64,000 bases of DNA, taken from the NCBI GenBank assembly GCA_041674765.1, contig JBAYVE010000001.1, forward strand, positions 2,321 through 66,320, given 5' to 3'. Origin of the DNA: Patescibacteria group bacterium (GTDB taxonomy: Bacteria > Patescibacteriota > UBA1384 > XYA2-FULL-43-10 > 1-14-0-10-43-13). Numbering within the stretch: the stretch's first letter is position 1; every line of letters begins with the position of its first letter. The translations under genes were made by a program, and so were the position numbers. This document shows positions 15,576-39,272 of the stretch, one piece after another. The notes below the pieces were generated by a model, which saw only the letters and a program-made list of their open reading frames with translations, ran no database searches and was not told the DNA's origin.

Positions 15576-15577
15576 CT

Positions 15578-16173: not shown

Positions 16174-19100
16174 TTAGAACCCTACATGCGTCCAGACGGT
16201 CGTTTGGGTGTTGGCCCAGAGACCCTCTTTTGTTTTTGCTTTGCCCTCGCTATCAAAGCCAAGGCAGATGCCGTTGACAGCCAAAGCGTCTTTGCCAAGG
16301 CGTTGCTGGCAGATATTAGTCGAAACCATGTCATTCCAAAAAGTGACATCCTCTGAACGTCCAGTCATTATTTGTGTTGGGATAAGGGCTTCGCCGGTCG
16401 AATCGTTGTATTTACTGTCGTACTGAATAGAAAGGACGTCTCCGATCAATCTCCTGGCCTTATATTGAGCCGCTAGAATTTTCTTTTTTTCCAATGTCTT
16501 ATTCAGGGCTGATGAATGGGCGGCATTTCCGCCGAAAACGCCTATGCCGGAGATATCATTTTTTTGCATTGCAGAGGAAGGAATTGTAAAATTATTCACC
16601 GGTGTATCAAGAAGGGATAAAGGATCACCCGACAAATTTATGTTTTGGTTTCCAGAAGATCTGCCGCTAAGTTTATCCCAGAAACTAGAAGGAGGAGAAG
16701 AGTCCTTATAAGGGTAATATCCATCAACAGAGCACCAATACTCAACACGGTAAGTAGAGAAGAGATTGATGGCCAGAAAAGTCAGGAGTGTTATAGCGAT
16801 TGTTACCGGATCGACCATCGGAATTATCCAGGCGCCAGCGATAGCATGGGCTGCAATAGCGATACTGGCATATGCAGCGGTGCTTACTAACACCATCAGA
16901 CTACCTGGCACAAGATTTAAGTCCTCTTCCCAGCCCGAGATCGTTTCGCCAAGGTACTTTTCAACTAGATAATCAATCGTCATTTGAACAATAATCTGGA
17001 AGGCTGCAGCTCGAAGGGCTTTGGCATTATCAACTTTGATTTGCTCGACCGTTTCTGCGGCCTGGGCATTCTCCAGATTTGTTTGGAATCTTTGTACCTG
17101 GCCGGCCATGCCGGCGTTTACTGCCTCGTCATATAGCCGTTGGGCTTCTTGGACATTTTCGGTTGCAGTTTGAAGAGACTTTTGGGCGCTTCGAAGAGCC
17201 TGATTCGCTTTATAAGCGTCGATACCTGACTTCGCAAGTCTAAAGGATGTGCCTTCTGAGACACCGAGAGCCCTGTCAGCCCAATTAAATACTCTTCCGA
17301 CGCCCCAATTCACAATAGCCTGTCCGAGCGTTGGAACAGATGCTCCGCCGATAGTTTGATTGGCATTGCCCTGAATTCCTTCGAAGCTGAAGGAATTAAT
17401 ACCCCAGTCATTGGTTGAAAGTCCGACTAAAATTCCCTTGGCCATATCGGGAGTGATTGAGAAGCGAAAAATCTTCTCAAAGCCTTTAGCCATATAATTC
17501 GCAAAATATTGAAAAGACTGACCGTTGTTTACCTTGATTAGAGTCTCTAAGGCAGCCATATTGTTGCCTTGGATCATACTGCTAGCATAAACCAGAATAT
17601 CGCCCCACTCCTGAACATTCTTTACGGCGTCAAATTTGACGCCAAATAAGTGACCGTTTGTCACTCCTCGTTTGACATATTTGACGATAGCAGCAGTCTT
17701 GATTTCTCCATTGCCTTTTATAATTGCCTCTGCAAAGCCAGGATAAATATTTGTGTCCAGCTTCCAAAGTCCGATATCCAGAGCTCGGTATTCGAGAATC
17801 TCAATAGCACGGTTTTTGGCTGATCCATTGACATCTTGGACGTCTGCGGCGTTAGCTCTTGAAGGATCGTTTAGAGTGTTAAGTTTCCTCTCCAAAGGTT
17901 CTACTCTAATCGCCTGTTCATCTTGAATACACGAATTAATCTTATGTTGTTGCTCATACCTATCCGTACACGAGTTTTTAATCGAAGTATTTTCCCTATT
18001 TATCTGAGTTTGGAGATCGACTTTTGCCTGTTCATACTTTTCAGGGGTGTAGTCATACTGTCTTTCGACGGTGGCTTGCACACTTTCAACCGGTGATTTG
18101 AAAGCATCTACCTGACCGAGACAATCAATGCCTTTTGCAAAATCATTGCCGCCCGTCTTTGCGCATTCCGGAGCCCCCGGAGCGTACTCAGTTACCTCGG
18201 GATTGGCCGAGTTACCAGTAGCATCCTTGTAGGCTGCTAGTTTTTGAGCGCTTTTGGTAGATAGACCATAAATTGAGTTACGGATCATCTCATATGTGAT
18301 AAAAAACTCTGCCGGGATAGGAGTCTTTGTATCAACGCCATCGATTTTTTTGATTGCATAATTGGAGGTCAGTGCCATAGTAATAACGCTGATCGCTCTG
18401 TTGCTATCTCGGCCAAAGAGATCTTTCAAATCAGCGGTTGGGACATCAACGCCGATAAAAACACCGCCGATTGTTAAATTGGCAATCTTTTTATGCAGCT
18501 GTTCTATCGCTGCGTTTTGGAGCCAAAGCCGGGCCCGATCTGCCAAGACTTCATTTTTTGGAATTGTACCTTTATCGATATCCTGTTTTTGGGCAATCGA
18601 TCTTCTGGCCGTGATTTTGCATTCTGTCTCTTGTGCATTTAGAGCGTTGATTTGCAGTACGGCATCATCTCTGTCTGCTACGGCATTTTCATATTCATCT
18701 GAACCGACAACGGTCTTGGATATCTCTTTTTCTGCTCCCGACTTGATCAGCGCCAGTCTAAGTTGCTCATCTGCATAAGTGGCCCGACACTGATCATCGG
18801 CACTTTTTACATCAGTTGGCAGAAGGGCTTTATAAATTCCGCTAAAAGATGCTTGGCTGGTGCTATTTAGATCGGCCTGTTCATCAAGCTTGGCTGCTAT
18901 GACTCCCATCATCGTTGAATAGGCGGTATCAGGATTCTCGATTATACTTAAAATTGTGGTTTGCGGAATGCTCAATTTATCTGCAAGTTTATATTTGAAT
19001 AAATTAGTCAAACCGTCGAAGAGCAAGGCATAATTCTTATAATCAGGGTTACTACTCTCTCCAGATATAGAGAATGTTGGCGCAGTAAAGATTGCCCTGA

Positions 19101-22100
19101 GGGCAGTCACAGTTTTCTTCGCGCCTTCTTCCTGTTCCACACTTAGATCAAAAATGCCGCACAGACGATCAACAGATACATCAAGGATGCGGTTTTTTAT
19201 AAGGGAATTTCCGGCTTCTTCTATATATTCCGAAGGTGTTATCTTGCCGTAGAGAAGCTGATAGGTGCCGCCGGCCTTTAAAGAAAAAGTATTGTCAAGC
19301 TGAGCGATAAAGCGGATATACGCAGAGACTCGTGCATTCTGAGTAATATCATTGCTATCGGTAGTGCTGGGTAAAATAGTCAAAGCATCAGTTATATTTA
19401 TTGTTAGCTCATTCTGAAGCTCAGAAAGCGCATCAAAAGCATCATTACTAAGCATTGGCGTGCCCTGAACATATTTCTGCAAGCGAAGAAGTTGATAAGA
19501 GATATCCGAATTCTTAATAAGAGCATACTGTTCGCCCATAATACGGGACATCTTCCCCTCATCCTTCAAAGCCCAGAGAAAAGGAATTTTGAAAGCAGCG
19601 GCAAAGTTTATCGGCTTTACATTTCTAATGATTTCTTCAATATCGTCTCCATGAAAGGTTCCGCGAGGAATGCCAAGTGTTTCTTCAATCTTGGCCTGGC
19701 CGATATTTGAGATAAAGCTATCAATAGTTTTTCCTTTAATCGGGACATAATCTAGTCCAAAGAGCCCGCCCAAGAAAGTGCCGCCGGCTTGGGCAAATGC
19801 ACAATCTCTGGCATCGGTTGTGAGAGCAGTATAAATTAGATAAGTTGTACCAGTTTTTAGTTCCATCTCCTGATCAAGATAACCGGAAGCAATCCGACCG
19901 GCAGATGAATAGTCGCCATTCAAAAGATCAAACATATCCCCGGCATCAAAAAGGTCCGGATCGACGGAAAAGGGGAGATTATCAAACAATTTGTAAGTAA
20001 AGATTTTGGCGGCTTCTTTCTCTCCGACCAATTGTTTATAGTTGGCTACTGAATTTTTAAGATGATTCCTCACAAAAAGTTTTTCTAGCAAGGTAATCGG
20101 AAGGCCAGTACTCCTATAAATCTCATTAATGACGATATTACTTGTATTTGCCTCTCCAAACGCGTATTGCATAGAGGGATCGTTTACAAAATTCTCTAAA
20201 TTGGAGTGAAAAATCTCGAAATCCCAACCAGGGAAAGCTCTACTTAGGCCATAAGAAATTTCATATAGAATACTAATGATTTGCTGCTCTTTGTGATTAT
20301 TTGCATAGTTTTGAGCTTCCTCTCTGCTTTCAAAACAGTGCCGGCCTTCCTTATCGTAATAACAGAACGAATTGTTCTGTAAGGTCGTCTCATTTACGGA
20401 GAATCCTTCTTTTTGGGTGTAGATAACTTTACAGCTGCTCTCTTTGTTATCATCGGCATACGGATTTGCATTGATGTAATCTACGAGCCTATCACTACCG
20501 TACTCATCTGCTTCGCTGGGCAGAAGTTCTCCGTTGAGCATCTGGATATACTTCTCCAAGGCGTTTTTGCTGATTTTTAATATTGAAGCCTCAATCAAAT
20601 TCTTCTGTTTGTTGGTTAGACTGGCCGATGTCAAGGTTTTCTCTTCAGTAAATAGAGATTTTGTGGAACCTTTTAGAACATCAAAATTTTTATCTGCCTT
20701 CTCAGCAGTTGAGTTGGCTTCGCTCCATATTCCAGAATTTCCACTCTTCAAGGCCTCATAACTGCCCATCGGCAAGCCCATACGGAACAACAAATCATTT
20801 TCTGGTGTTCTGATATTATCGCCAAATTTTCTATTGGAGATATTCTCAACGATATCATCCAGATCGTTTTCCTTCGTTAGCAAGCCGTTCTGGTCTTTGA
20901 GCTTTGATTGAAAGTCTTGTTTCCAACGAGTTGTTGCCGCATCGACAAATTTTTTAAATTGGTCGGGGTTATCCTTCTTTAATTTACGGAAATAATCAAC
21001 CGTTAATCTCTCTCTGGTTTGGGATAGCCGCTTAAAGAATTCATCAAATTTACTGAGTTTTACCGTGTCGCCGAAATACGCTGATAATATTTCAGGCCCT
21101 GCCCATCTCATCAAAGCTTCAAAATCTTTCTTGAAGTCAGGCGGGGTCTTGGATATGGAGGCGCCCTGAAAGTAGAAGAAAGGCATATTATAATGTTCCT
21201 CGATTCTTGCTTGACCGATCGCTTGCATAAAGGCATCCTGACCGGTGACTCCTCTTTTTTCAAAGTTCTCGACAAAATAAATTAGGGAGTTGCTGGGAAG
21301 ACCCAATTTAGCCTCGGCGGTGTTGGCTCCGAGGGTGACAAACAGATCAGACACACCAATTTTTCCGGCGATGAAGTTAAAAATAATCTTTGCTATTTGA
21401 AAGGTAGTCAATTTTTTACTTTTTCGCCGTCCATCGCCAGAATCAGTGTTTTGGGTGGAATCGAGGCCTGGCTTTATCTGATTTATGGTTAATAAATCAG
21501 AGGGAATTTCTTTGCCTGCCATGATCTCGCTGATAGCTCTGATCAGTTCGTTTACGTCAGTGATTAGAATGTTTACTCGGGCAGCCTTCTCATCATATTC
21601 ACTGGTTTTCTTCATCTCATACACCTGCTTCAGCGCCAGAAGATTTTTCTGGAGGTCGGCGAGATCGGTAGCAATTACACTAGCCGAATTAATAATCCCC
21701 TGAAGCTTTGAGAGATCGCTATCGTTCTTTAAAAGATCCCTCAAAGAACTCATAGTTTTTTCAACCTTGTCAGAAATCTCACGTATCTCAACATCATCAG
21801 ATTTTAGAGCTTCCCATTCGCTGTTGATCTTACTTTGTAGCTCATAGACCTTAAGAACTCTAGCTAAGTAGAAGCCAAGTTCCTTGTTGTTGGTTGAGAG
21901 TTCCGGATCTAGATTAAGGAGATCAATTTTGGTTTTATCTTCATCATCCAATAATTTGTTGGCCAGTCCGTAATAAAGCAATTTTGAGCCGATTCGTTCA
22001 AATACATTCTCAGCATTTGCGTTAGCATATCCCATCATAAGAAAAAGATCGAAGTCTTCCAAACCGGCTGTTTTAGCTTTTGTTTTTGGGATATTAAAAT

Positions 22101-24717
22101 CTTGAGAATAATCTTTACTTTGAGCCTCGCTTGAATCCTGAGTTTTATATTGGATCCGGAAATTTACGGTCTGACTGAGCGCACAAATACTTTGTTGTCG
22201 CTTCTTTTCAATCTCGTCACTGATCTCAATATTTCCGGCATCTGTGTGAATCGTAATATTAATCTGTTCGGCCGGACGTTGGCAGGCATCTTTGGCAGTA
22301 ACTTTGGCTAAATTACCTCGAAGCCACTCTCTAAAGGTTAGATATCCCAAGTCGCCAGGATTGTATTCCACCTCCTGGCCATTTTCGATGGCAAATATCT
22401 TATCAATAGTTTCACCTTCGTTTAGGAACTTTGTACTGTCTAGATGAGTGGAATCATCTCCGAGCCGCCGTGCCAGCGTGTAGATGCCGATAGTTTGGTA
22501 GGCACTTCTACTGCCGGAAATAGCTTGTTCCCAAGTGCCGTCCGGTAGTTGATAGGCGCTATTCGTCATGGCGAAGTATTTCAAGCCGAAACTCGTGTCG
22601 TGCTTACGGGATTCCCCGACTATGTTGGCATATTCGGCCGCAGTGAAGGGCTTTGCGTGATCATTTGGATTGTGACCGTTCGTAAAAAGCGAAGTTGTCC
22701 CTGGCTGAATATGCAGGAGGTTATCAATATAGCCTGCATTGTTGCGGAAGATCTGAGTGCGGACAGAATTTAAGCTATCGTCTAAATCATTGAAAGACGT
22801 TGCATCCGTAGGCCAACTTTCCTTTGGCAAGTTTAACTTTGCTTCGATAATCTTGGCGCCGACGAGTGTCGCAAACATCGTACCGTCATTTAGATTATCA
22901 AGATCGCCGGCACGAAGATTCATCTCTGCTTCAACTTTGCGCTGTCCAATATTTTCCAGCAAACCGAAAAGATTATTCTTGACTTCCTTTCCGGCCTGGA
23001 AGTCATTATCAAGGGAACCAAAGGGAAGACCAAGCCTTTTTTCGATTGCAGATCTACCAATGACGTATTTGAGCGCTGTCAGGTCTGTAATATCGGTATC
23101 TGTCAGTATTTCTCTTGGAAGACCTAAATAGTCAGCCAGATAAACGCCTCCCAAATTTTTCAGAGTGTCCTCGACATCGCTACCATGAATAGAGTTTGTA
23201 GGCGAGTTAATGATATTAGCAAAGAGTGATTGGCCTAGAAGAGAAACAATATCATCCAAGCCGGCGCTTGAGAGATCGCCATCATAACTGCTAAATTGAG
23301 GATTCATGGCAGACAATAGATCGAGAGCGCTCTGAGATGCCATTTGTCTCATCGTCTCCATCAAATCCGTGCCAGTGTTTGTATTTGATCTCCGATAGCC
23401 ATCAGTTGTCTGCCATGCCAATTTGATCGGTTGGGCAGCCTGAGGTTCCTTGAAATCATGGCCGATCCTTCTTTTCTTTAGGACGGTGCAACGGACGTCG
23501 TCAATCTCGGTGATATCAACTGCCTGACCATTGTAGTGTGCAGAGATATTTCTGCTATTCTTCAGTGCCGGATCACTGTCCTCGAGAATCTCAGCGTTTT
23601 TCAAATCTTCATAATAAGCGTCATATTCCTGACCGTCTTTATCCTCGATTGTAAAACTATTGGCTTTTGCCCCGCATTCCGCGGCACTTTCATCTAAAGA
23701 GCAGACAACGTTTGAGTTGGTAATAGAACCGTTCAATTGTTCTCGTATCACATCTGACTCATTTGAATCGGTGTCGTTCTGGAGGATTCTGTTGGCCTTA
23801 ATTCTCCAATGACCTCCTCCTCCCTGGTCTTTTGGTGTGATTAAGTAAATCAGCGTCTTCAAAACTCTGATATCGATAGTCGGGGCCGAGATAGCATCAG
23901 AAATCAAATCGGCGACATATTCCTTATTGTTGTCACTTAATAGCTTGCCTTGGAGAGTATTGCTATCGATACCGGTGATGCACGAGAGAGTATTAAAATT
24001 GGCAAGATTTGTTTTGCCGGTTGCTTTAATTCGAGCCGCCTCCTCTTCCCAAAGGCCTTTCAACTTTTTATCACCGAAGTTTTTTTCCGCGAGAGAAACC
24101 AGATCCCTGAATTGCTGATGGTTGGAGATAGTCTCCGTCGCAGTAATACCGGTACCGTTTTGAAGCCAGGTTAGATATTGGAATTCATCTAGATATCTAG
24201 GACTCTCCTTGGTCTTTTCGGTATTTACCTGGTCATAAATCTTGTTCCGATTATCTGCAGGCAAAATTGCAAAAAGATTGAACAAGTCGTTATTGAAATC
24301 AGGCATAATATCGCTCATGCATTTGAGCTTTTTGAGAGATTCGATATCTTTCTTAGCTAAAACTAATCTTGCGTCAGAGGACGGTCCGAAAATGTCGTCC
24401 ACGGATAAAAGACTATCAGGATTGGTATAATAACTAATCAATTCCGCGAGCTGCTGATAGGCCTCTGACTGACCGAATTTTTTACAAACTTCTGAGTTAT
24501 TAGTTTCGGGCAGAGTGAACGTGAAATTTTGCTGAATGGTTATTGAATTAAGTCTGATCAGATCCGGTCTGTTCTGGGCAATATAGTCAGAAGAATCCAA
24601 ACTATCGATTTCGGTTGAAGGGATATCTGCAGCCTGTGCCCAGCTTAATAGAAAAGGATTTAGTATAATGACGACAGAGATAACTGCAAATAATAACTTT
24701 TGAAAGAATATCTTCAT
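16174..24717 (-). CDS. Giant (2847 aa) secreted surface protein, membrane-anchored by C-terminal TM helices; last gene of the T4SS-like operon; function unknown
   Basis: Single uninterrupted ORF. Signal peptide MKIFFQKLLFAVISVVIILNPFLLSWAQA. Recurrent motif (I/L)E(A/E)KLGLP at least 8 times. SAHYNGQAVDI motif (M15-peptidase-like SxHxxGxAxD). Coiled-coil segment. Hydrophobic helices SLMVLVSTAAYASIAIAAHAIAGAWIIPMV...ITLLTFLAINLF about 215 aa from the C-terminus. ATG overlaps the upstream gene stop (ATGA). Confidence 0.7.
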   Translation of the reverse strand: MKIFFQKLLFAVISVVIILNPFLLSWAQAADIPSTEIDSLDSSDYIAQNRPDLIRLNSITIQQNFTFTLPETNNSEVCKKFGQSEAYQQLAELISYYTNPDSLLSVDDIFGPSSDARLVLAKKDIESLKKLKCMSDIMPDFNNDLFNLFAILPADNRNKIYDQVNTEKTKESPRYLDEFQYLTWLQNGTGITATETISNHQQFRDLVSLAEKNFGDKKLKGLWEEEAARIKATGKTNLANFNTLSCITGIDSNTLQGKLLSDNNKEYVADLISDAISAPTIDIRVLKTLIYLITPKDQGGGGHWRIKANRILQNDTDSNESDVIREQLNGSITNSNVVCSLDESAAECGAKANSFTIEDKDGQEYDAYYEDLKNAEILEDSDPALKNSRNISAHYNGQAVDITEIDDVRCTVLKKRRIGHDFKEPQAAQPIKLAWQTTDGYRRSNTNTGTDLMETMRQMASQSALDLLSAMNPQFSSYDGDLSSAGLDDIVSLLGQSLFANIINSPTNSIHGSDVEDTLKNLGGVYLADYLGLPREILTDTDITDLTALKYVIGRSAIEKRLGLPFGSLDNDFQAGKEVKNNLFGLLENIGQRKVEAEMNLRAGDLDNLNDGTMFATLVGAKIIEAKLNLPKESWPTDATSFNDLDDSLNSVRTQIFRNNAGYIDNLLHIQPGTTSLFTNGHNPNDHAKPFTAAEYANIVGESRKHDTSFGLKYFAMTNSAYQLPDGTWEQAISGSRSAYQTIGIYTLARRLGDDSTHLDSTKFLNEGETIDKIFAIENGQEVEYNPGDLGYLTFREWLRGNLAKVTAKDACQRPAEQINITIHTDAGNIEISDEIEKKRQQSICALSQTVNFRIQYKTQDSSEAQSKDYSQDFNIPKTKAKTAGLEDFDLFLMMGYANANAENVFERIGSKLLYYGLANKLLDDEDKTKIDLLNLDPELSTNNKELGFYLARVLKVYELQSKINSEWEALKSDDVEIREISDKVEKTMSSLRDLLKNDSDLSKLQGIINSASVIATDLADLQKNLLALKQVYEMKKTSEYDEKAARVNILITDVNELIRAISEIMAGKEIPSDLLTINQIKPGLDSTQNTDSGDGRRKSKKLTTFQIAKIIFNFIAGKIGVSDLFVTLGANTAEAKLGLPSNSLIYFVENFEKRGVTGQDAFMQAIGQARIEEHYNMPFFYFQGASISKTPPDFKKDFEALMRWAGPEILSAYFGDTVKLSKFDEFFKRLSQTRERLTVDYFRKLKKDNPDQFKKFVDAATTRWKQDFQSKLKDQNGLLTKENDLDDIVENISNRKFGDNIRTPENDLLFRMGLPMGSYEALKSGNSGIWSEANSTAEKADKNFDVLKGSTKSLFTEEKTLTSASLTNKQKNLIEASILKISKNALEKYIQMLNGELLPSEADEYGSDRLVDYINANPYADDNKESSCKVIYTQKEGFSVNETTLQNNSFCYYDKEGRHCFESREEAQNYANNHKEQQIISILYEISYGLSRAFPGWDFEIFHSNLENFVNDPSMQYAFGEANTSNIVINEIYRSTGLPITLLEKLFVRNHLKNSVANYKQLVGEKEAAKIFTYKLFDNLPFSVDPDLFDAGDMFDLLNGDYSSAGRIASGYLDQEMELKTGTTYLIYTALTTDARDCAFAQAGGTFLGGLFGLDYVPIKGKTIDSFISNIGQAKIEETLGIPRGTFHGDDIEEIIRNVKPINFAAAFKIPFLWALKDEGKMSRIMGEQYALIKNSDISYQLLRLQKYVQGTPMLSNDAFDALSELQNELTINITDALTILPSTTDSNDITQNARVSAYIRFIAQLDNTFSLKAGGTYQLLYGKITPSEYIEEAGNSLIKNRILDVSVDRLCGIFDLSVEQEEGAKKTVTALRAIFTAPTFSISGESSNPDYKNYALLFDGLTNLFKYKLADKLSIPQTTILSIIENPDTAYSTMMGVIAAKLDEQADLNSTSQASFSGIYKALLPTDVKSADDQCRATYADEQLRLALIKSGAEKEISKTVVGSDEYENAVADRDDAVLQINALNAQETECKITARRSIAQKQDIDKGTIPKNEVLADRARLWLQNAAIEQLHKKIANLTIGGVFIGVDVPTADLKDLFGRDSNRAISVITMALTSNYAIKKIDGVDTKTPIPAEFFITYEMIRNSIYGLSTKSAQKLAAYKDATGNSANPEVTEYAPGAPECAKTGGNDFAKGIDCLGQVDAFKSPVESVQATVERQYDYTPEKYEQAKVDLQTQINRENTSIKNSCTDRYEQQHKINSCIQDEQAIRVEPLERKLNTLNDPSRANAADVQDVNGSAKNRAIEILEYRALDIGLWKLDTNIYPGFAEAIIKGNGEIKTAAIVKYVKRGVTNGHLFGVKFDAVKNVQEWGDILVYASSMIQGNNMAALETLIKVNNGQSFQYFANYMAKGFEKIFRFSITPDMAKGILVGLSTNDWGINSFSFEGIQGNANQTIGGASVPTLGQAIVNWGVGRVFNWADRALGVSEGTSFRLAKSGIDAYKANQALRSAQKSLQTATENVQEAQRLYDEAVNAGMAGQVQRFQTNLENAQAAETVEQIKVDNAKALRAAAFQIIVQMTIDYLVEKYLGETISGWEEDLNLVPGSLMVLVSTAAYASIAIAAHAIAGAWIIPMVDPVTIAITLLTFLAINLFSTYRVEYWCSVDGYYPYKDSSPPSSFWDKLSGRSSGNQNINLSGDPLSLLDTPVNNFTIPSSAMQKNDISGIGVFGGNAAHSSALNKTLEKKKILAAQYKARRLIGDVLSIQYDSKYNDSTGEALIPTQIMTGRSEDVTFWNDMVSTNICQQRLGKDALAVNGICLGFDSEGKAKTKEGLWANTQTTVWTHVGF

Positions 24718-28691: not shown

Positions 28692-28695
28692 TCAT

Positions 28696-31495: not shown

Positions 31496-31518
31496 AATAT
31501 AAACTTTAAAATAATTTG

Positions 31519-31932
31519 TTATTGTTTAATCAGAACTTTTCCCGTGTCATACTTCTTCGCTATATTGCTTATTTCATCATGACTGACATTCTTGTGCTGA
31601 ACCGTCGTTCCTTTCTTCTCGACATGATATATTTCTATCCTCAGATCGGAATCATCACCTTGGTGCCAGACCCTTTTTTTCGGTTGGGATACATAGGCAA
31701 TAGCGGCTTTAAAGAAATCCAAGAAAGGGCGCTCATTGATCTTGATGAAATCCAAGCAGATGACAAATACCGCAATCGGTGTGATCAAAATATAGGAAAA
31801 CGGCTTGGGGATAGCAGAATAAATGGCATATGAACAGCCAAAGCCAATTACGGCATAGATAAACTGAACCATTGTTAATGGCCCGAGGACTCGATCTTTC
31901 ATATCGATATTTTGCGGAACTTTATACCTCAA
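31519..31932 (-). CDS. Small two-TM membrane protein, VirB3/PrgI-like (position and topology)
   Basis: 137 aa; MKDRVLGPLTMVQFIYAVIGFGCSYAIYSAIPKPFSYILITPIAVFVICLDFI hairpin; lies immediately upstream of the VirB4-N gene, as VirB3 does in T4SS loci. Confidence 0.4.
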   Translation of the reverse strand: MRYKVPQNIDMKDRVLGPLTMVQFIYAVIGFGCSYAIYSAIPKPFSYILITPIAVFVICLDFIKINERPFLDFFKAAIAYVSQPKKRVWHQGDDSDLRIEIYHVEKKGTTVQHKNVSHDEISNIAKKYDTGKVLIKQ

Positions 31933-32022
31933 AAGCCCCTCCTAGGCCTAAGTTATGACTATAAAGTTAGTATAACAAAAAAAAGGAATGCAACAAAGAG
32001 GACGAAGCTTGGGCAAAGATTA

Positions 32023-32943
32023 TCAAGGATGGATGATAGGAGAAGGTTTTGCTGCCTGTGCTGCAAACTGGTTTTTCCGAATTAGAGGCTTGCCGGCTCT
32101 TTCTAATTCACTTGAAGTGATTAGCGTTGAATAAAAATAAAGCATGGCTGATCGTTCACGAATATAATTTTCAGCTTCTTCATAATTATCGGTTTTAAGG
32201 CCATGCGCTGTAAGATAAATTTTAGTGTCTGCAATTTCCTCGGCGTTGACGATATAAATCAATGCTTCCTCGCAATTGACCTCTTCTTTGAGCTTTTCTA
32301 TATCGAGTTCGAGTCTGTTTGTGAGGCGGTAGAAATCGACAACTTTGGGATAGATTTCTTTGAGCTGGGGGATAGTAATGGGATATTCAATATAATTATG
32401 CATCACAAGCAAAATTTCTTTTGCTAAAGCGCTGATTTTCTTTAAGGTCTCAGGGTTTTCTTCCCCCGATCCTTTATAAAGTCGGGCGAAGTTATCGACT
32501 TGAGGCTTAACAGCGAGATAGCAAAGGTTTTCATAGCCATTCTTAATCTGTCTGCATCGGACAACAATTTCCTGCCAAGACTTGACCTGCTGACTTATGA
32601 CATATTTCTCATTTAGCCGAAATGTGCCCTGAAATAGCTTGGCAAGAGTAATATTTATATCATTCAGACTCCCATCTTTCATTCCAGCTATCGCAAAAAT
32701 AATCCGTTTGCGATCATCATCGATTGCTATTGATCCGCATGTCTCAGCCAGGAGACATGCCAGTATTATTTTGTGGCGTGCAATTTCTCGAAGTAGGCAA
32801 TTTTCAAAAAAGAGATACCAAAAATTTATATAATCAGGTCTCGGCAATGCCGTTACAAATGTTTTTACTTCCTCAAAACTATGAGTTTCCAGGTAGAAGG
32901 CGTAGTTTTTTGCGTCAGTGATATCTTTTTCGGTTTCGATCAT
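32023..32943 (-). CDS. Hypothetical cytoplasmic protein (306 aa) within the T4SS-like operon
   Basis: Long ORF with no TM segments or recognisable motifs; tight operon spacing. Confidence 0.5.
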   Translation of the reverse strand: MIETEKDITDAKNYAFYLETHSFEEVKTFVTALPRPDYINFWYLFFENCLLREIARHKIILACLLAETCGSIAIDDDRKRIIFAIAGMKDGSLNDINITLAKLFQGTFRLNEKYVISQQVKSWQEIVVRCRQIKNGYENLCYLAVKPQVDNFARLYKGSGEENPETLKKISALAKEILLVMHNYIEYPITIPQLKEIYPKVVDFYRLTNRLELDIEKLKEEVNCEEALIYIVNAEEIADTKIYLTAHGLKTDNYEEAENYIRERSAMLYFYSTLITSSELERAGKPLIRKNQFAAQAAKPSPIIHP

Positions 32944-32958
32944 ACAAATTTCTTTTTA

Positions 32959-35733
32959 TTACTTCAAGAACCTGGCTGGAATCTCGACGCCAGGATATTT
33001 TCGTCGGAATTCGTCAACGCCAAGAAAGCTGACCAGGTCATCAATTTTATCGCCAATTTTGACTTTCTTTCCGTTTATTTCAATTGTCTCCGTCGCATCC
33101 AACCCAGAGGCATTATCGAGTTCCTTGCCGCCTTCACGGGAAACAGGAGCGTACTGCAGCTTGGCCTCTGCATCAAAACCTTGCCGATATTGTCCGCCAG
33201 GACCGCGGATATCAGCATTTATAACGGCCTGATTCATTTTGCCGAGGACATCAAGCCCCTGAGTATATTCGGCGCTAGTGACATTTTCACCAGCGGCTTT
33301 TCGAAGGTCTACTTTTAAGGTATTTTTAGTTGAATCCCATACAAAGGTGGCAGCACTTTCGAGTTCGGATTTCTGGACTTTTGTCAGGTCTGCTGCCTTT
33401 CTCACAGCAGCCTCTCGTAGATGGACTTGGAAACCAGAGGCGTCAGTTTCGTCAGCCAGAAATTCGTCAATTTTGGCAGATTTCTCTGCGTCGGTAAGGG
33501 CTTTGAACCCAGCATCTACTTCTCCATAACTTGACATCGCATCTTTTTTAATGGCGATAAATTGGCCGCCGTTCATAACAGTTTCGAGACCTCTTTCATG
33601 CTTTTGGGCTAGTTTATCCCTTACAACCACAGCACCGGCGGCGTCCTCAGTATCACTAGCCGCTTCTAATTCCGCGCTTGTAAACATGTCATGGATGTTT
33701 GACCATGTCGAAGTTTGGGAACTAACCCCTTGAAGAGAATTTTTTATCTCCGAGAAGATTTTCCAATACTCTTTACCGTTGAGATCTCCTGCTCTATTTG
33801 TAACCATTTTCATAAACCAATCTCTCATCTCACCTGTTGCCAAACGAGCCGACTCTTCGGAGATGCGTTTTTCCGTTGTCGAGCCATATTCCTCTTTGTT
33901 TATAGCAGAGAGCTCTTTCATCGTTCTGTCGCGAAGTAGTCCTTTAATTGCCTCGGGCTCGCCATCTGTCAGAGAGCCAGCTTTTGAAATATCTTCACTG
34001 ATAACGTTGCCGTTCTCATCCATTGGAACTATACCTTGCAATGATATTCGGCCTAGTCCTATAAATTTGTTGTTATTTTTATCAAAGTATCTAGAGTCTG
34101 ATTTCAATGAATCCAGTTGGGCGGCATAGCTCAATTCAGCAATCTTTAGCTCCTTTTCAGCAATCACCCTCTGATCTTCTAGCTTTTTCCTTACTACCGG
34201 ATCGGTAACGTCCGGATCTGCAAGCATGGCTTCGACTTTCTCAATTGTATCGCTGTGCTTACGGAAGGATTCGACTACTTCATTTAATTTATATGCGTTC
34301 GCCTTGACCTCTCGGCGGTTATCACTGTCTGATTTTCCACCAAGCCTTTCGTATGGCTGAGCCATCCTAACTGCTTGCAACAAGTCCTCCCAGACTGCCC
34401 GGAATTGTTTATTATCATGAAAAGCAGGATCGCCTAAAGCGGCCATCCCCTTTGCCTTATTCTTGAAATTATTTAGATAAGTATCATCTGCCTCGACTCT
34501 CATCTCATACTGTCTGGTTCTTAAATACGCCTCTTTGCCTTCTGCGCCGCCTAGCTCATAGTATTTTCTCTTTAAGTTCTTGTCTTTCCAATCTTTTTCA
34601 CCATAGAGTGAATTGACGTTATCCATATACTGACCCCATTTGGCTTGGTCTTTGTCGCTCATATATCGGATGCCGCCTGTTTTACCACCAAACGCTTCTC
34701 GATAAAGCTGATCGTCCCAGCCTTCAGATTCTTTTTTATGCCAATCTCTGGCAGCTTGGACCCTTCTAGCACGTCTAACCCAAGCACCGATAGGATTTGC
34801 CAAAGCATTTGGACTCTTGCTACCAAAGCTCTTGAACCAGTTGCCGATCGTTGTCTTCTTATCTTCCACCATAGGATCGATCCACTTGGACTTGACCTTG
34901 CTACCAGCCCATTTGCCAGCTTTTTTGACGGTCAGATTGCCAAATTGATTCATCAGCGATCCACCGACCTTAAATGGGGCCATGATAGCCATTATGATCG
35001 TTGCTAGAGTCAGAATACGCATCATAAAGCTATTATCCGAAATATTGCCAAGCTGGAAACCGAGCCAAAGGATGGCGATGGAGATTACCGGCATAAATGT
35101 CCAGCGAAGCATGTAACTCCACCACTGATTAAATAAGCTTTTTGTTTGAGGAAGGATCATCGCCAGGAAAGCTAGGGGAGAAACCATTATCAATACGTAT
35201 ACGACCCAATTCCGAAAAAGGAAGAGAAAAGCCAAGACCAAGGCACCAATTCCAATGGCCAGAATAGTTATCGAGTTCAGGAATGCATCGAAACCTCCGT
35301 CGAAGTTGAATTGCGGCATCTCCAGACCCAATGAGTTATCGACAGCACTGGTATTCGTAAAGAAAGTCATTGCAACGCTGGAGGCATCGACAAGGATTCT
35401 TGAGATTAGGAAACTGAAATTCGCTGCGATGACAGCGAGCAGAAGAGTGGGGATCAATTTTTTGATCCCGTAAGTATTAGCATTTATCCGTAGTATCTCC
35501 ATAAAGGCGATAGCAACAAGAATAAGAATGAGTAGAGAATTGGCTGTAGTTAAAAGCATGCCCCAAACTTCGCGTATCACTGTCCCCGGTTGTCCACTTC
35601 CTGTTAGGACTTTACACATCGGTTCAACTGTTGACGCCTGCGCGGAATCAGGTAATAAGAAAAAAGCTAGTGGCGATAATACCAATAGTAAATTCAATAA
35701 TCTCCAAATTATCCTTTGCTTTGTCAGGTGCAC
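32959..35733 (-). CDS. VirB6/TrbL-like polytopic membrane protein (signal peptide, about 6-7 TM N-terminal half, about 500-aa hydrophilic C-terminal extension)
   Basis: MHLTKQRIIWRLLNLLLVLSPLAFFLLPDSAQAS then multiple hydrophobic helices (LLILILVAIAFMEIL, LIPTLLLAVIAANFSFLI, ILAIGIGALVLAFLFLF, VVYVLIMVSPLAFLAMIL, FMPVISIAILWLGFQL, ILTLATIIMAIMAPF), then a charged coiled C-terminal region. This architecture is typical of Gram-positive VirB6 analogues. Confidence 0.55.
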   Translation of the reverse strand: MHLTKQRIIWRLLNLLLVLSPLAFFLLPDSAQASTVEPMCKVLTGSGQPGTVIREVWGMLLTTANSLLILILVAIAFMEILRINANTYGIKKLIPTLLLAVIAANFSFLISRILVDASSVAMTFFTNTSAVDNSLGLEMPQFNFDGGFDAFLNSITILAIGIGALVLAFLFLFRNWVVYVLIMVSPLAFLAMILPQTKSLFNQWWSYMLRWTFMPVISIAILWLGFQLGNISDNSFMMRILTLATIIMAIMAPFKVGGSLMNQFGNLTVKKAGKWAGSKVKSKWIDPMVEDKKTTIGNWFKSFGSKSPNALANPIGAWVRRARRVQAARDWHKKESEGWDDQLYREAFGGKTGGIRYMSDKDQAKWGQYMDNVNSLYGEKDWKDKNLKRKYYELGGAEGKEAYLRTRQYEMRVEADDTYLNNFKNKAKGMAALGDPAFHDNKQFRAVWEDLLQAVRMAQPYERLGGKSDSDNRREVKANAYKLNEVVESFRKHSDTIEKVEAMLADPDVTDPVVRKKLEDQRVIAEKELKIAELSYAAQLDSLKSDSRYFDKNNNKFIGLGRISLQGIVPMDENGNVISEDISKAGSLTDGEPEAIKGLLRDRTMKELSAINKEEYGSTTEKRISEESARLATGEMRDWFMKMVTNRAGDLNGKEYWKIFSEIKNSLQGVSSQTSTWSNIHDMFTSAELEAASDTEDAAGAVVVRDKLAQKHERGLETVMNGGQFIAIKKDAMSSYGEVDAGFKALTDAEKSAKIDEFLADETDASGFQVHLREAAVRKAADLTKVQKSELESAATFVWDSTKNTLKVDLRKAAGENVTSAEYTQGLDVLGKMNQAVINADIRGPGGQYRQGFDAEAKLQYAPVSREGGKELDNASGLDATETIEINGKKVKIGDKIDDLVSFLGVDEFRRKYPGVEIPARFLK

Positions 35734-37718
35734 TTTCCTCCATATCCGATCGCATCGCGTAAAAGGCCGAGACCAAGGTTAGCCAGAGGCTCTAAAATAG
35801 TATTGTAAATCAACCTCAACACAATGCAGATTGAAAAGCTTATATATTCTAAAGGACTAAGCATAGATGCATTTGGCGAGATACAATCGCCTTTTGCTCC
35901 TTCTTGGATAGCAGCAGCGTTCCATTCATTGGCTAGGGTTTGATCAGCAAATCTTTGTGCCACAGCGTTCTTATCATCTAAGATTTCTTGAGTAAAGCCA
36001 AAGGCTTTTTTTGTCTCGTCTGTAATGTTTTCACTTCCCATTATACATTCGTGAAATTCAATATTTTTTTGAAGATAAAAAAGTCCTAATTCTGATTGGA
36101 AAACAGCGGTTAGATAATCTTCCTGGGTATTTTGAGCATAAGCCTTTATTCCCCAAAGAGCTATGCCTATTGTGATGATACCTATGAGGGCGTATATATT
36201 GGCTTTTCCAGGGCTCTTAGACCAAAATTTGTTTCCAGCTGCTTTGATTTTAGCAGCTGGCCGTGAGGCTGGTACTATTAACTCAGCCCCGGGTTTTGGG
36301 GCAGTAAGTGCAACATTTGCACCTTTTGAAGATGGCATAAGAATATTTGTCCCTGGGTGCGTTCTTTCAATTTGGGCAATAGCCTTTTCCGTAACAGCTG
36401 CTCCGGTAGTGGTAACTTCTGCAACTGACGCAGCAGCTCTAGCATCTTGCAAGCTTTTTAGTTTATTATACCCAACGAATGCGGCACCTACTTCACCAGC
36501 GCCGACAATGACTTCAGCGGCGCTTGTAAAATCCATATCAAATTGTCCTTCCGGGTACTCCTTGCCTTTATTCCATGGCATTGCTTTCCACCAATCAGAG
36601 TATTTGCTTCTAGCCTCTTCGCTGGTGAACATCTTTATGCCCTTTATTGCCAAGTCGTACTGCTTGTCTAAATAAGCGCCGTTCACAGAATGGATATCAG
36701 GATATTCTGATCCAGAGTTAGCATAAAAAGACGTATACATCGCCATGTCTATATCTGCGTTTTTATATTTAGAGCCGTCAAATTTTTGTTTTACTTCTGT
36801 ACCATTTATTTTGGCGATCTCAGAAGCGAATTCTTCGGCTACGCTCTTAATTGCATCCAAATTCTTCCAGCCGGTTTGCGATTCGGGCTTAACTATGAGG
36901 TTGCGGCATTGATCGACAGCTTCTTTCGGCATATTGCCCTGAATTAATTTTGGCTTTGTGCCACTTTTAAGATACTCGATAGTTTGTTTCAAATACCAAC
37001 CGAAGATCCAGTTAGTGTCGTTCGTGGCAGCCCAATGAAGGCCAATTTTTTCTTTCTCGTTATAGGGATTCTCATAGTAGAAATCCCAGTTCATTAATTT
37101 CCCGTTTGCATCCTTCGCGCATGCCATGAAGAGTGTAAAATCACCCGAATTATCTTTTTGGCACTCTTTCCATGCAAGAGCATCGATCACGGTTCCGTCT
37201 GGAATTTGAGGGTAGAAACCATACTCACCTGCAGGTTTCGAGGTGTCATTTCTTGTTGTTGGTCTGGTGATGAGGACTAAGGGATATTTACCGCTGCCAG
37301 CAGGGGCGCCGTTAACCTTTAACTCTTTTATGGATTCTGATAGATCGATTGTTTTGCCTTCACTAGTTACGGTATATCCGGTTATATATAACAGATCAAC
37401 ATCCCATGAACCATTATCGGCATTGTCATTTTCTACTGTCATATTTCGCCATCGAGTGCCACCGGTTCCATAGTTGGTGTAAGTGATCTTTGCTAGTTTT
37501 CTCTTGCCATCTTCTGTAAAATAGATTGAATGAACCACATTACCAGCGATATGTGTGCTGGTCCCATCTCCAATAGTTGCGTTGGTAGATGACCATGTAG
37601 CGGTTTTTTCCTCAAATTGGGGATTGGGCACCTCTGCGTGAGCAATGTCCGCGAAGATAGGTGAAAAGTAGCCTATCAAAAAAGAAAATAGTACTAGATA
37701 ACTTACAATTTTTTTCAT
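35724..37718 (-). CDS. Secreted protein (664 aa) with signal peptide and a single TM helix near residue 510; unknown function
   Basis: MKKIVSYLVLFSFLIGYFSPIFADIAHA signal; later IYALIGIITIGIALWGIKAYA TM; 10-nt overlap with the VirB6-like gene. Confidence 0.5.
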   Translation of the reverse strand: MKKIVSYLVLFSFLIGYFSPIFADIAHAEVPNPQFEEKTATWSSTNATIGDGTSTHIAGNVVHSIYFTEDGKRKLAKITYTNYGTGGTRWRNMTVENDNADNGSWDVDLLYITGYTVTSEGKTIDLSESIKELKVNGAPAGSGKYPLVLITRPTTRNDTSKPAGEYGFYPQIPDGTVIDALAWKECQKDNSGDFTLFMACAKDANGKLMNWDFYYENPYNEKEKIGLHWAATNDTNWIFGWYLKQTIEYLKSGTKPKLIQGNMPKEAVDQCRNLIVKPESQTGWKNLDAIKSVAEEFASEIAKINGTEVKQKFDGSKYKNADIDMAMYTSFYANSGSEYPDIHSVNGAYLDKQYDLAIKGIKMFTSEEARSKYSDWWKAMPWNKGKEYPEGQFDMDFTSAAEVIVGAGEVGAAFVGYNKLKSLQDARAAASVAEVTTTGAAVTEKAIAQIERTHPGTNILMPSSKGANVALTAPKPGAELIVPASRPAAKIKAAGNKFWSKSPGKANIYALIGIITIGIALWGIKAYAQNTQEDYLTAVFQSELGLFYLQKNIEFHECIMGSENITDETKKAFGFTQEILDDKNAVAQRFADQTLANEWNAAAIQEGAKGDCISPNASMLSPLEYISFSICIVLRLIYNTILEPLANLGLGLLRDAIGYGGKCT

Positions 37719-37807
37719 TTACCCCTCCGGTAATAGTGCATTTTAGTAATCACAAAAATTATACCACAAAGATCTTAAAATCAGTAAACAAATTTTTTAA
37801 TACAAAT

Positions 37808-38476
37808 CTATTCTATAGCGTTCAGATATTGCCGGACAAGTTCATCGTCGGGATTGAGAGACTTGGCGGCAGTAAATGATTGCTTCGCTTCCTCCCGCAA
37901 TTGTTTTTTCAGATTAGAATTCATCTCGATATTTTCAGCAATTTTCAACTGGGAAATACCCAGATATAGCCAGCCGTCGGCGGAAGTTTTGTCCATCTCG
38001 ATAGCAATTTTGGCAGCAGCTGACGCTAACTGAAACTCCTCTTTCTCAATTAGTAATTTAGAATTTTTGACGGCTTGAATGGGCTCAGCGGGGACTTTCT
38101 TTGCTAATTCAAAATATTGTGATTGCTCGGTCAGCTTTTTTTCTTTGAAAAAGTCTTCTAGAGATAATATATCGCTAGTTCCAAGCTCAGCCAATTGCCG
38201 TCTTTCCGCTGCTTTTTCGTTCTTGCCATTTAAGACTAAGGCTTTTTTATATTCCAAGTCGGCACTCAAAAATTTCTTCTGCTCTAAGTACAAGTCGCCC
38301 TTTTCGACATAATTATTCGACCATTTGCCTCGAGCCGGTTTAGTTAGTAAGGATAAGGTCAACAGTATTATCAGAAAAATAAGTGTCCATTTCAGGCATT
38401 TCATAAGCAGAGGATTACCTAGGAGGAAGGAACCTTTATTCTTTTGATCAGGCGGAATTGCCATCGGCATTGGCAT
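37808..38476 (-). CDS. N-terminally anchored TPR-like (helical repeat) protein
   Basis: TM LKWTLIFLIILLTLSLLTK; helical-repeat-like region ...KGDLYLEQKKFLSADLEYKKALVLNGKNEKAAERRQLAELG...DGWLYLGISQLKIAENIEMN...AKQSFTAAKSLNPDDEL. Confidence 0.4.
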   Translation of the reverse strand: MPMPMAIPPDQKNKGSFLLGNPLLMKCLKWTLIFLIILLTLSLLTKPARGKWSNNYVEKGDLYLEQKKFLSADLEYKKALVLNGKNEKAAERRQLAELGTSDILSLEDFFKEKKLTEQSQYFELAKKVPAEPIQAVKNSKLLIEKEEFQLASAAAKIAIEMDKTSADGWLYLGISQLKIAENIEMNSNLKKQLREEAKQSFTAAKSLNPDDELVRQYLNAIE

Positions 38477-38477
38477 C

Positions 38478-39272
38478 TTATCTCCTCAATAGATAAATGA
38501 GAATAATAAACAAAGCAAAAATTATGCGGTAGAATACAAATATTTTGAAATTGCTCTTTTTTAGGTAGTTCAGCAAGAATTTTATAGCGATGAAACCGAA
38601 AACAGTGGCAAACAAAACCGCAGTGAAGAATTCGAGATTAAGGTCAGAGCTCGTTAACTTTCTTGACTCATACAGAAAGGCACCGACTGTGGCAGGCGTT
38701 CCAATCAGAAAGGAAAAACGGGCAGCGTCCTCCCGTTTCAAACCGATCGAACGGGCAGCCACCATCGTGATACCCGAACGGGAAACACCGGGGATTAGGG
38801 CCAATGCCTGAGCTAATCCGATAAGAAAGGATTGCTTGAAGCCAATATCCTTGAAAGAGTTTGTAGATTTGGCATATTTATCTACCAGCCAGAGAACTAT
38901 GCCAAAAATCATCATAGTAAAAGCGATTATCAGTGGAGCCTGGAGCTTTGACTCAGTAATCTTTTCGAGAAATACTCCTGCAATCGCGGCCGGAATCGTT
39001 GCTAACACAATTTGCCAGAGCAGGGTCGAGGAAAACGCAGTGGTATTCTTTCCTGTAAAAGCAGATCGAAATATGCCCAGCCAATCCCGCCAGAAGAAGG
39101 CAAGCAAAGCGGCCACGGTGCCCATATGCAAGGCCGTATCAAATTTCAACCCTCCATGAACCCAATTGAAAAGATAGGGAACTCCCCAGAGATGTGCCGA
39201 TGATGATATTGGCAAAAACTCAGCCAAACCCTGAATAGTGCCCAAAATAATTGCTTGATATAAATATAGCAT
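38478..39272 (-). CDS. uppP: Undecaprenyl-diphosphatase UppP (BacA)
   Basis: IILGTIQGLAEFLPISSSAHL...GVSRSGITM... are canonical UppP motifs; first gene of the long minus-strand operon (1-nt gap to the next gene). Confidence 0.9.
   Translation of the reverse strand: MLYLYQAIILGTIQGLAEFLPISSSAHLWGVPYLFNWVHGGLKFDTALHMGTVAALLAFFWRDWLGIFRSAFTGKNTTAFSSTLLWQIVLATIPAAIAGVFLEKITESKLQAPLIIAFTMMIFGIVLWLVDKYAKSTNSFKDIGFKQSFLIGLAQALALIPGVSRSGITMVAARSIGLKREDAARFSFLIGTPATVGAFLYESRKLTSSDLNLEFFTAVLFATVFGFIAIKFLLNYLKKSNFKIFVFYRIIFALFIILIYLLRR

Follow-up and report, generated by a model that had tools for sequence, protein, structure and literature searches.

A type IV secretion system of Gram-positive type beside the probable replication origin of a Patescibacteria group bacterium

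Introduction

An unusual Gram-positive-like type IV secretion system (T4SS) with essential pilins was described in Southlakia epibionticum (Wang et al. 2023, PMC10633639). The cluster was defined as SEML1_0006-0019, with 0004 and 0005 just outside; it has no recognizable relaxase or coupling protein, and protein export or another role was suggested for it (PMC10633639). Here we report a comparable locus from an uncultured Patescibacteria group bacterium. It comprises twelve minus-strand genes at 16174-39272 of a 64-kb stretch of DNA (GenBank assembly GCA_041674765.1, contig JBAYVE010000001.1, forward-strand positions 2,321 to 66,320), referred to as the window, and three VirB2-like pilin genes located elsewhere in it. 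We propose, with a probability of about 0.8, that the locus is a vertically inherited chromosomal T4SS of the Patescibacteria, derived from MPF_FATA conjugation machinery that became uncoupled from DNA processing, and that it serves an epibiotic lifestyle and not plasmid conjugation.

The layout in S. epibionticum is the reference for the comparisons made below. The dnaA-dnaN-recF genes lie on the plus strand and are followed on the minus strand by 0004, 0005 (PEGA), 0006 (two lysozyme-like domains and a cysteine proteinase), SEML1_0007 (1113 aa, Hedgehog/DD-peptidase fold) and SEML1_0008 (VirB4). SEML1_0009, a 293-aa hypothetical protein, occupies the TrsD position and is not so annotated in the tables. 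It is followed by SEML1_0010 (PrgI), 0011 (VirB6-like), 0012 (NTF2-like), 0013 (VirB6-like) and the pilins SEML1_0014-0019, then by Hsp20 and tRNA-Ser. Transposon sequencing (Tn-seq) scored nearly all of the SEML1_0004-0019 genes as essential for epibiotic growth (PMC10633639).

Quinonero-Coronel et al. (2025, PMC12102498) surveyed 3,035 genomes of Patescibacteria and identified a monophyletic Patescibacteria VirB4 clade nested in MPF_FATA. TrsD, a family described as a remote homologue of the VirB4 N-terminus, was found beside VirB4 together with PrgI, VirB6 and VirB2 arrays, and the T4SS was often close to dnaA, dnaN and rnpA. Relaxases were present in 103 of the 3,035 genomes, in 15 of them near virB4, and VirD4-like genes were present in most genomes, away from virB4 (PMC12102498). 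A 2025 review regarded the Patescibacteria T4SSs as the first ones essential for their bearer and speculated on signal exchange or uptake of host molecules through the T4SS or a pilus. According to the same review, natural transformation of Southlakia needs comEC and type IV pili, and deletion of comEC abolishes competence, not viability.

Core genes of the secretion system

The window had previously been described in a note made without database searches (the sequence-only reading), which claimed twelve packed co-directional genes. All twelve open reading frames (ORFs) were found at the coordinates first given, on the minus strand. Starting from uppP, the gaps between successive genes are 1, 89, -10, 15, 90, 23, -8, 4, 33, 60 and -4 nt, a range of -10 to +90 nt, in line with the claimed gaps of 0-90 nt or overlaps. 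Promoter and terminator scans returned no more sites than were found in shuffled sequence, so they were uninformative about operon structure. Homologues were sought in the best 80 genome matches to VirB4 (54-83% identity), referred to as related loci and numbered L001, L002 and so on.

The 606-aa product of 28696-30516 (minus strand) is a VirB4 ATPase of the MPF_FATA type. It matched the NCBIfam model conju_CD1110 with an E-value of 1.2e-107 (361 bits against a cut-off of 325; model positions 181-735 of 752) and Pfam P-loop_TraG with 4.2e-27. Its best solved relative was the VirB4 C-terminal domain of a Gram-positive bacterium (PDB 4ag5, 1.2e-41), and both the Walker A (AKSGSGKS) and Walker B (LMIVDE) motifs are intact. 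The 328-aa product of the gene just upstream (30509-31495, minus strand) matched conju_CD1110 at positions 2-126 (3.6e-5) and VirB4_plasma at positions 113-279 (3e-7), while a PDB sequence search gave no usable match. Since the two proteins cover different parts of one model, they are complementary pieces of VirB4, the smaller one being a TrsD-like protein that corresponds to a separate VirB4 N-terminal subdomain. A TrsD-like homologue was found in 79 of the 80 related loci, as a separate ORF just upstream of VirB4 in every locus examined. A frameshifted or pseudogenized VirB4 was ruled out, because the relatives also have two separate ORFs, with differing spacing. The next gene (31519-31932, minus strand) encodes a 137-aa, VirB3-like protein of the PrgI family (Pfam PrgI, 2.1e-13, 51 bits against a cut-off of 27) with a hairpin of two transmembrane (TM) segments at aa 15-67; homologues occur in 74 of the 80 loci. 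The VirB4 ATPase, the VirB4 N-domain protein and the VirB3-like hairpin protein of the sequence-only reading were all recovered in this way.

The 924-aa product of 32959-35733 (minus strand) has a signal peptide and, in aa 55-261, five to six TM segments, after which a hydrophilic tail extends over about 660 aa. A word-indexed homologue search with its TM domain gave just three weak matches, and a family set of 32 sequences was assembled from the window protein and 31 homologues drawn from related loci. Seven of the 32 sequences independently matched Pfam TrbL (best 8.6e-8) and one matched TrbL_4. The only PDB match of the family profile at E<=1 was TrwI, the VirB6 protein of plasmid R388 (7o3v_F, E=0.0029). 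Homologues are present in 40 of the 80 related loci and lie upstream of PrgI in every case checked. From the TM topology and these transitive TrbL and TrwI matches, the 924-aa protein is probably an extended VirB6-like protein, and the earlier VirB6-like assignment was recovered through the homologues and the profile. The combination of a polytopic VirB6 core with a large hydrophilic extension is also found in the extended VirB6 proteins of the Rickettsiales. No sequence relation was seen beyond the TrbL-like core, however, and the present locus is monoderm, whereas the Rickettsiales are diderm and their T4SSs keep VirD4 and VirB8-11.

Two less conserved proteins flank the VirB6-like protein. 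Between it and PrgI, a 306-aa protein (32023-32943, minus strand) has no predicted TM segment, in agreement with the cytoplasmic location proposed earlier, and no match in Pfam, NCBIfam, PHROG or PDB searches. Its homologues by sequence are limited to L001-L003; a TM-less ORF fills the slot in other relatives. Directly upstream of the VirB6-like gene, a 664-aa secreted or surface protein (35724-37718, minus strand) has the signal-peptide-like N-terminus expected from its description as secreted, hydrophobic segments at aa 506-528 and 619-637, and no Pfam, NCBIfam or PHROG match. Only 11 relatives were found among 1.84 billion representatives, with conservation limited to aa ~250-660. In L001-L008 this slot is always occupied by a signal-peptide protein of 348-646 aa, and the slot proteins share no detectable sequence similarity between species. 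We take the slot to be the VirB5 position of classical virB operons.

The block is headed by uppP (38478-39272, minus strand), a housekeeping gene for undecaprenyl-diphosphate phosphatase, as had been claimed (Pfam BacA, 2.5e-74; NCBIfam UppP, 3.4e-73). It is separated by 1 nt from the next gene, and uppP adjoins T4SS genes in seven related loci. That next gene (37808-38476, minus strand) encodes a 222-aa, weakly TPR-like protein with an N-terminal TM segment at aa 21-50, which is conserved in L001, L003, L004, L006 and L008 and has no PHROG match. Of the earlier label, TPR anchor protein, the anchor stood, and the TPR assignment is weak, coming from sub-threshold matches. In L007 (1771-2151) and L008 (1232-1636), an extra small ORF of 126-134 aa lies between the TPR-like anchor and the secreted-protein slot; the two ORFs start with similar sequences and have no counterpart in the window. 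Two candidate undecaprenyl-diphosphate phosphatases are encoded divergently in 38478-39921, the BacA-type uppP on the minus strand and a PAP2 protein on the plus strand. The latter weakly resembles SepP/BcrC-type enzymes, and the pair is kept in L003 and L006.

VirB2-like pilins

Across oriC from the operon, and 9.5-13 kb away from it, the plus strand carries three VirB2-like pilin genes at 3470-6680. The inventory of T4SS genes in the sequence-only reading was correct for the core and missed these three, which fall outside its coordinates; the search for VirB2 homologues that it proposed found the PF18895 pilins within the window, at 5987-6680. The 104-aa protein (6366-6680) matched PF18895 (5.6e-15, above cut-off), TrbC (0.034) and NF045849 (5.4e-8), and the 117-aa protein (5987-6340) matched PF18895 (1.3e-6, 28.8 bits against a cut-off of 26.6) and NF045849 (1.7e-5). 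The third is an 832-aa secreted protein (3470-5968) that ends in a VirB2-like two-TM pilin domain, a pilin fusion. Its C-terminus matched Pfam T4SS_pilin at aa 773-818 (1.9e-4, below cut-off) and NF045849 (5.4e-5); the TM hairpin spans aa 765-831 and is preceded by a secreted domain of about 760 aa with two similar Cys-containing modules. In L019, L033 and L049, homologues of the pilin at 6366-6680 are found within the T4SS cluster, upstream of the VirB6-like gene.

The matches of all three proteins to NF045849, the Mbov_0395 pilin-like family of Mycoplasma integrative conjugative elements (ICEs), were below cut-off. This likeness hints that the pilin-like proteins may stem from the monoderm T4SS lineage and not from a diderm borrowing.

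Other genes in this region were also noted. Hsp20 (626-1027) and tRNA-Ser (8491-8580) are near the pilins, as in Southlakia SEML1_0014-0022. That the pilin/Hsp20/tRNA-Ser block is on the opposite side of dnaA with respect to Southlakia suggests a rearrangement around the origin. A PilB/GspE-type ATPase (6677-8314, minus strand; T2SSE 3e-117, TIGR02538 4e-140) is encoded tail to tail with the VirB2-like pilins, and PilB homologues are within 10 kb of VirB4 in L015 and L049.

Comparison with described systems

The order VirB6-like, PrgI, TrsD-like, VirB4 and then cell-wall hydrolases is shared with Southlakia, as are the convergent orientation on dnaA-dnaN-recF, the nearby PF18895 pilins with Hsp20 and tRNA-Ser close to them, and a cluster free of relaxase and coupling protein. 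There are also differences. One VirB6-like gene is present here and two in Southlakia, no NTF2-like (VirB8-fold) gene was recognized at the present locus, and the pilins, three in number with one a fusion, are set apart from the cluster, with oriC and about 10 kb in between. Downstream, the module here comprises the TolB-like propeller, the M23-like protein, which is probably degenerate, and the 2847-aa protein, and the block is headed by uppP and the TPR-like anchor. Essentiality for growth on the host is a feature of the Southlakia system, whereas the present locus, from an uncultured metagenome-assembled genome (MAG), is known from its genes.

The surveyed Patescibacteria T4SSs (PMC12102498) resemble the present one in the MPF_FATA-like VirB4, the adjacent TrsD, the PrgI-type VirB3, VirB6, the VirB2-like pilins, the lack of a relaxase and the site near dnaA, dnaN and rnpA. 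Terms for TolB-like, uppP or giant-protein neighbours are absent from the text of PMC12102498. The assignment to the VirB4/VirB6 systems of CPR (Candidate Phyla Radiation)/Patescibacteria made from sequence thus matches both published descriptions (PMC10633639, PMC12102498).

The relation to the conjugative T4SSs found in Gram-positive bacteria (pCF10 Prg/Pcf, pGO1 Trs, CTn2 of C. difficile, Mycoplasma ICEs) is seen in the CD1110/CTn2-type VirB4, the TrsD-like and PrgI proteins, the predicted PrgK/TraG-like SLT+CHAP hydrolase and the lack of outer-membrane core components. The pilin-like proteins resemble the Mbov_0395 family of the Mycoplasma ICEs. Unlike those systems, the present one is without relaxase, type IV coupling protein (T4CP), oriT or PrgB-type adhesin in the ~76 kb covered. 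It is chromosomal and vertically inherited, it has VirB2-like pilins, and its M23 domain is on a separate protein and probably inactive.

Genomic setting and mobility

The closest VirB4 genes (83-72% identity) are on Patescibacteria MAG contigs, and those at 54-67% identity are from Berkelbacteria, Kazan, CPR2, Doudnabacteria and Falkowbacteria. Most of the best 80 genome matches carry CPR/Patescibacteria titles, with about 12 labelled otherwise or just as 'bacterium'. TrsD-VirB4 contigs labelled 'uncultured Gammaproteobacteria', 'Planctomycetota' or 'Methylomirabilis' were found among them (L034, L035, L040, L041, L048, L058 and others); these are probably mislabelled bins.

The gene order in L001-L008 is uppP, TPR-like anchor, secreted protein, VirB6-like, cytoplasmic protein(s), PrgI, TrsD-like, VirB4, anchored hydrolase-slot protein, propeller, bitopic protein and giant. 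It was read fully in L001, L003 and L004, and L002 and L005 are incomplete or partly read. L006-L008 show local variations, either an extra small ORF or the propeller ahead of the hydrolase-slot protein. Order and flanks (uppP, PAP2, Xer) are kept in relatives with VirB4 identities from 83% down to 72-73%. The persistence of this arrangement between the same housekeeping genes argues that the locus is not a recent mobile element.

On the other side, dnaA, dnaN, recF and dciA occupy 11474-15874. Because GC skew tracks gene strand in the window and did not locate oriC, DnaA boxes were used instead. Of 21 DnaA-box matches across the window, ten are concentrated between 11427 and 13192, including five at 12909-13192. 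The dnaA-dnaN spacer with its DnaA-box cluster (12869-13280) is probably oriC, and the operon has its 3' end about 3 kb away, as had been proposed. Convergent recF-dnaN-dnaA genes downstream of VirB4 are also present in the distant loci L012, L019 and L033, and Southlakia has the convergent layout too. Here dnaA-dnaN-recF-dciA and the 23-kb operon point towards each other, and the operon would be transcribed head-on to the rightward fork if oriC is the DnaA-box cluster.

The position of the locus bears on whether it is an integrated conjugative element, or the decayed remnant of one, that moves DNA now or once did, with a relaxase and a coupling protein encoded elsewhere. Such an element would account for the homology of the machinery to Gram-positive conjugation, for the fact that the best NCBIfam models are VirB4 families of ICEs and conjugative transposons (CTns), and for the resemblance of the pilins to the Mycoplasma ICE pilin-like family. 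In addition, a tyrosine recombinase is encoded 700 nt upstream of the block, and VirD4-like genes are away from virB4 in most Patescibacteria genomes (PMC12102498). The recombinase, however, is XerC/D-like (1.6e-74) and stays beside PAP2 and uppP in the relatives; a phage integrase bordering an island was ruled out on these grounds. No match to a relaxase or VirD4/TraG-type coupling-protein family was obtained among the window ORFs of at least 100 aa and the called genes of the next 10 kb to the right, about 76 kb of the 365,533-bp metagenome contig, in agreement with the sequence-only reading, and replication and partition genes were likewise missing from these ~76 kb. Species whose VirB4 is 72-83% identical share the same flanks, the base composition is not anomalous (GC content of 42.7% in the block and 42.0% in the remainder of the window), and the scarcity of relaxases in the survey, particularly near virB4 (PMC12102498), also counts against this explanation. 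Conserved synteny, together with the absence of relaxase and T4CP nearby, indicates a stable chromosomal feature and not an ordinary ICE. The earlier statement to this effect held, the window having no relaxase, T4CP or integrase of such an element, and we consider a conjugative element extremely unlikely.

Further to the right, a plus-strand cluster resembling nucleotide-sugar/nonulosonic-acid biosynthesis occupies 47656-63082 and continues to contig position 75423. It includes UDP-glucose dehydrogenase, NeuB, two CTP_transf_3 proteins, DegT aminotransferases, a TPP enzyme and epimerases, as well as a glycosyltransferase, GtrA and a 798-aa CBM_4_9 protein. In a 253-aa protein (46090-46851, minus strand), an N-terminal Phd/YefM antitoxin domain (4e-12) precedes some 180 aa that matched no family; no adjacent toxin gene was noticed.

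Predicted wall hydrolases, propeller and giant protein

The four genes downstream of VirB4 encode membrane-anchored or secreted proteins. The first (27480-28691, minus strand) specifies a 403-aa protein with an N-terminal TM segment that is a predicted SLT + CHAP peptidoglycan hydrolase, a VirB1 analogue of the PrgK/TraG type. PHROG 342 (endolysin domain) was matched at aa 73-203 (7e-6) and another endolysin family at aa 271-380, and the hydrolase motifs KEN96, GPFQ117, AYNRG174, WCT296 and YHVG359 are present. A PDB sequence search gave no usable match. The SLT+CHAP assignment of the sequence-only reading is supported by these lysin matches, the intact motifs and sub-threshold Pfam matches. 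The second gene (26181-27446, minus strand) encodes a 421-aa protein with an N-terminal TM segment, a partial TIGR02800 match (1e-14) and PD40 repeats, in accordance with its description as a TolB-like beta-propeller; TolB-like propeller matches occur in 29 of the 80 related loci.

The product of the third gene (24714-26120, minus strand) is a bitopic protein of 468 aa. A TM segment spans aa 161-197, the C-terminal domain is M23-like, and neither a PHROG match nor a usable PDB sequence match was obtained. Active LytM/M23 enzymes carry HxxxD, YxHL and HxH motifs, with zinc and catalytic residues. The window protein has CDGVD, YANF and QLHIE instead, while the positional homologue in L004 has AHL and HVH. 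The M23-like domain is probably degenerate, with the catalytic histidines lost. Of the three wall-hydrolase domains counted previously, SLT and CHAP are supported by their intact motifs, and M23 is probably no longer active, HxxxD and HxH being missing.

The last gene (16174-24717, minus strand) encodes the 2847-aa protein, deposited as hypothetical protein WC107_00110 [Patescibacteria group bacterium]. TM segments were predicted at aa 1-30 (signal peptide) and 2602-2656. No Pfam match was obtained with the whole sequence, ten overlapping pieces gave nothing below E=0.003, and there were no PHROG or PDB sequence matches and no internal repeats. Its family comprises 29 proteins of 2000-3100 aa, all of them lacking Pfam domains, and the gene is downstream of VirB4 in L001-L009 and L015. 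Conserved blocks are found at aa 279-450, the strongest, and at aa 2750-2847. The first block (window 23368-23881) has the invariant residues D282, R284, H303, E320, H394, D401, D406 and C410 and contains the sequence SAHYNGQAVD. We take the latter to fit the S-x-H-x-x-G-x-A-x-D motif of VanY/M15 (LAS) peptidases, an identity that the Pfam, PHROG and PDB profile searches and AlphaFold2 did not support. No downstream His ligand is conserved after this motif in the family, a word-indexed homologue search with aa 262-464 found nothing, and a profile of aa 225-700 matched no PDB sequence at E<=10. An AlphaFold2 model of aa 225-700 made with 22 sequences had a predicted local distance difference test (pLDDT) score below 50 over the conserved block and was confident solely in helical 'GLP-x-GSL' repeats beyond aa ~515. 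The conserved C-terminal domain past the TM cluster (aa 2575-2847, window 16174-16995) has invariant Cys residues and an invariant terminal T-H-x-G-F; the last 273 aa were modelled with a pLDDT of 76, and 80-95 over the final 120 residues, and matched no solved fold. No sequence or fold link between the giant protein and any T4SS component was found. As to its description as a surface giant paired with the T4SS, the ORF, the signal peptide and the C-terminal TM cluster were confirmed, and the pairing is supported by synteny within one family-level lineage.

A further idea is that, in this lineage, the hydrolase genes following virB4 might have been remodelled into a dedicated organelle for host contact or wall breaching. 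The giant would then be an atypical peptidoglycan peptidase of LAS type on a long helical stalk, and would act with the 664-aa protein and the propeller as a T4SS-coupled device that sets the host range. The peptidase part is attractive because a Southlakia gene downstream of virB4 has a Hedgehog/DD-peptidase fold. At present we consider this elaboration unlikely.

It should also be considered whether the twelve genes encode one apparatus at all. The T4SS may consist of the seven genes from the VirB6-like protein to the SLT+CHAP hydrolase, plus the distant pilins, with uppP, the TPR-like anchor, the propeller, the M23-like protein and the giant being envelope or adhesion genes on the same strand. 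uppP is a housekeeping lipid-carrier gene, the propeller, M23-like and giant genes are missing from the distant T4SS loci L013, L019, L033 and L064, the giant is unconnected to T4SS components as described above, and the 60-90-nt gaps leave room for internal promoters. Nevertheless, the order is kept in family-level relatives, apart from the local variations in L006-L008, there is a 4-nt overlap between the M23-like and giant genes, and the Southlakia genes downstream of virB4 (PEGA, lysozyme/Cys-protease and the 1113-aa DD-peptidase-fold protein) are essential (PMC10633639). We view this division as possible though doubtful. Synteny within one family-level lineage is what connects uppP, the propeller and the giant with the T4SS, joined in the case of the last two by the analogy with Southlakia.

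Proposed function

The component identities, the predicted topology, the conserved gene order, the chromosomal stability and the absence of nearby DNA-processing genes are compatible with the following machine. The extended VirB6-like protein and the PrgI/VirB3-like hairpin protein would form a membrane channel, energized by the VirB4 ATPase, whose N-terminal subdomain would act as a separate TrsD-like polypeptide. The membrane-anchored SLT+CHAP hydrolase would open the cell wall locally, with the probably inactive M23-like protein as a scaffold or activator. The VirB2-like pilins, whose genes are some 10 kb distant and one of which carries a fused ectodomain of about 760 aa, may build an extracellular fibre. 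The host cell could be contacted through the lineage-specific surface proteins, namely the 664-aa protein, the propeller of TolB type and the 2847-aa protein with its C-terminal anchor. The result would be a passage through both envelopes that serves to export proteins, or to exchange or take up molecules derived from the host, and not to conjugate plasmids. A role of this channel, wall-opening and host-contact machinery in epibiotic transport is inferred by analogy, because the collinear Southlakia cluster is essential by Tn-seq.

Several observations weigh against this interpretation. A VirD4-like gene may lie in the other ~290 kb of the contig. No VirB8-like (NTF2-like) component was recognized at the locus, and a number of assignments concern proteins that individually scored below cut-off: the 924-aa protein against Pfam TrbL (E=0.013, 15.7 bits, cut-off 25.9), the 403-aa protein against CHAP (2.4e-4) and SLT (5.5e-3), the 468-aa protein against Peptidase_M23 (3.3e-5, 24.4 bits, cut-off 28.7) and the 222-aa protein against TPR_17 and TPR_2 (E ~4e-3). 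A single transcript for the twelve genes would follow from their spacing, and both 89-90-nt gaps carry promoter-like hexamers, which are no commoner than in shuffled sequence. Finally, distant relatives in which the T4SS borders directly on recF have neither the propeller nor the giant, and these two are thus not necessarily components of the machine.

The same machine could also work inward, as a relaxase-independent system like H. pylori ComB or archaeal Ced through which an auxotrophic epibiont would take up DNA, nucleotides or host molecules. Such systems need neither relaxase nor T4CP, which fits the absences observed here. Nucleotide, amino-acid and lipid synthesis are missing in Patescibacteria (PMC10633639), and uptake of host molecules is among the roles on which the 2025 review speculates. 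VirB4 gave weak matches to NCBIfam CedB and CedD, limited to short parts of the ATPase domain; however, these were far under cut-off, and no ComB- or Ced-specific component was found. Furthermore, Southlakia is transformed via comEC and type IV pili, and since loss of comEC is tolerated while the T4SS is essential, DNA uptake for competence is not the role of the T4SS there. An uptake system is in our opinion quite unlikely, and a chromosomal T4SS uncoupled from DNA processing that serves the epibiotic lifestyle is the explanation we prefer.

Significance

The system is of a known kind: the monoderm-type core, the split VirB4, the pilins, the missing relaxase and the oriC-proximal site have already been published. 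New here are the three pilin genes across oriC, the fast-diverging slot upstream of VirB6 and the narrow, domain-less family of the 2847-aa protein. What the essential T4SS of the Patescibacteria carries is a question that matters, as the group makes up a large share of bacterial diversity, and it is not answered by this locus. The value of the locus is comparative. A lineage distant from the cultivated Saccharibacteria has retained the core. The likeness of the pilin-like proteins to a Mycoplasma ICE family is relevant to where the pilins came from, by descent along with the monoderm machinery or by borrowing from diderm systems. Turnover is fast among the extracellular parts, as seen in the 664-aa protein with its 11 relatives and in the 2847-aa protein with no known domain, which is what host-recognition components would be expected to show. 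The leads worth following are the family of the giant protein and the fast-diverging slot upstream of VirB6.

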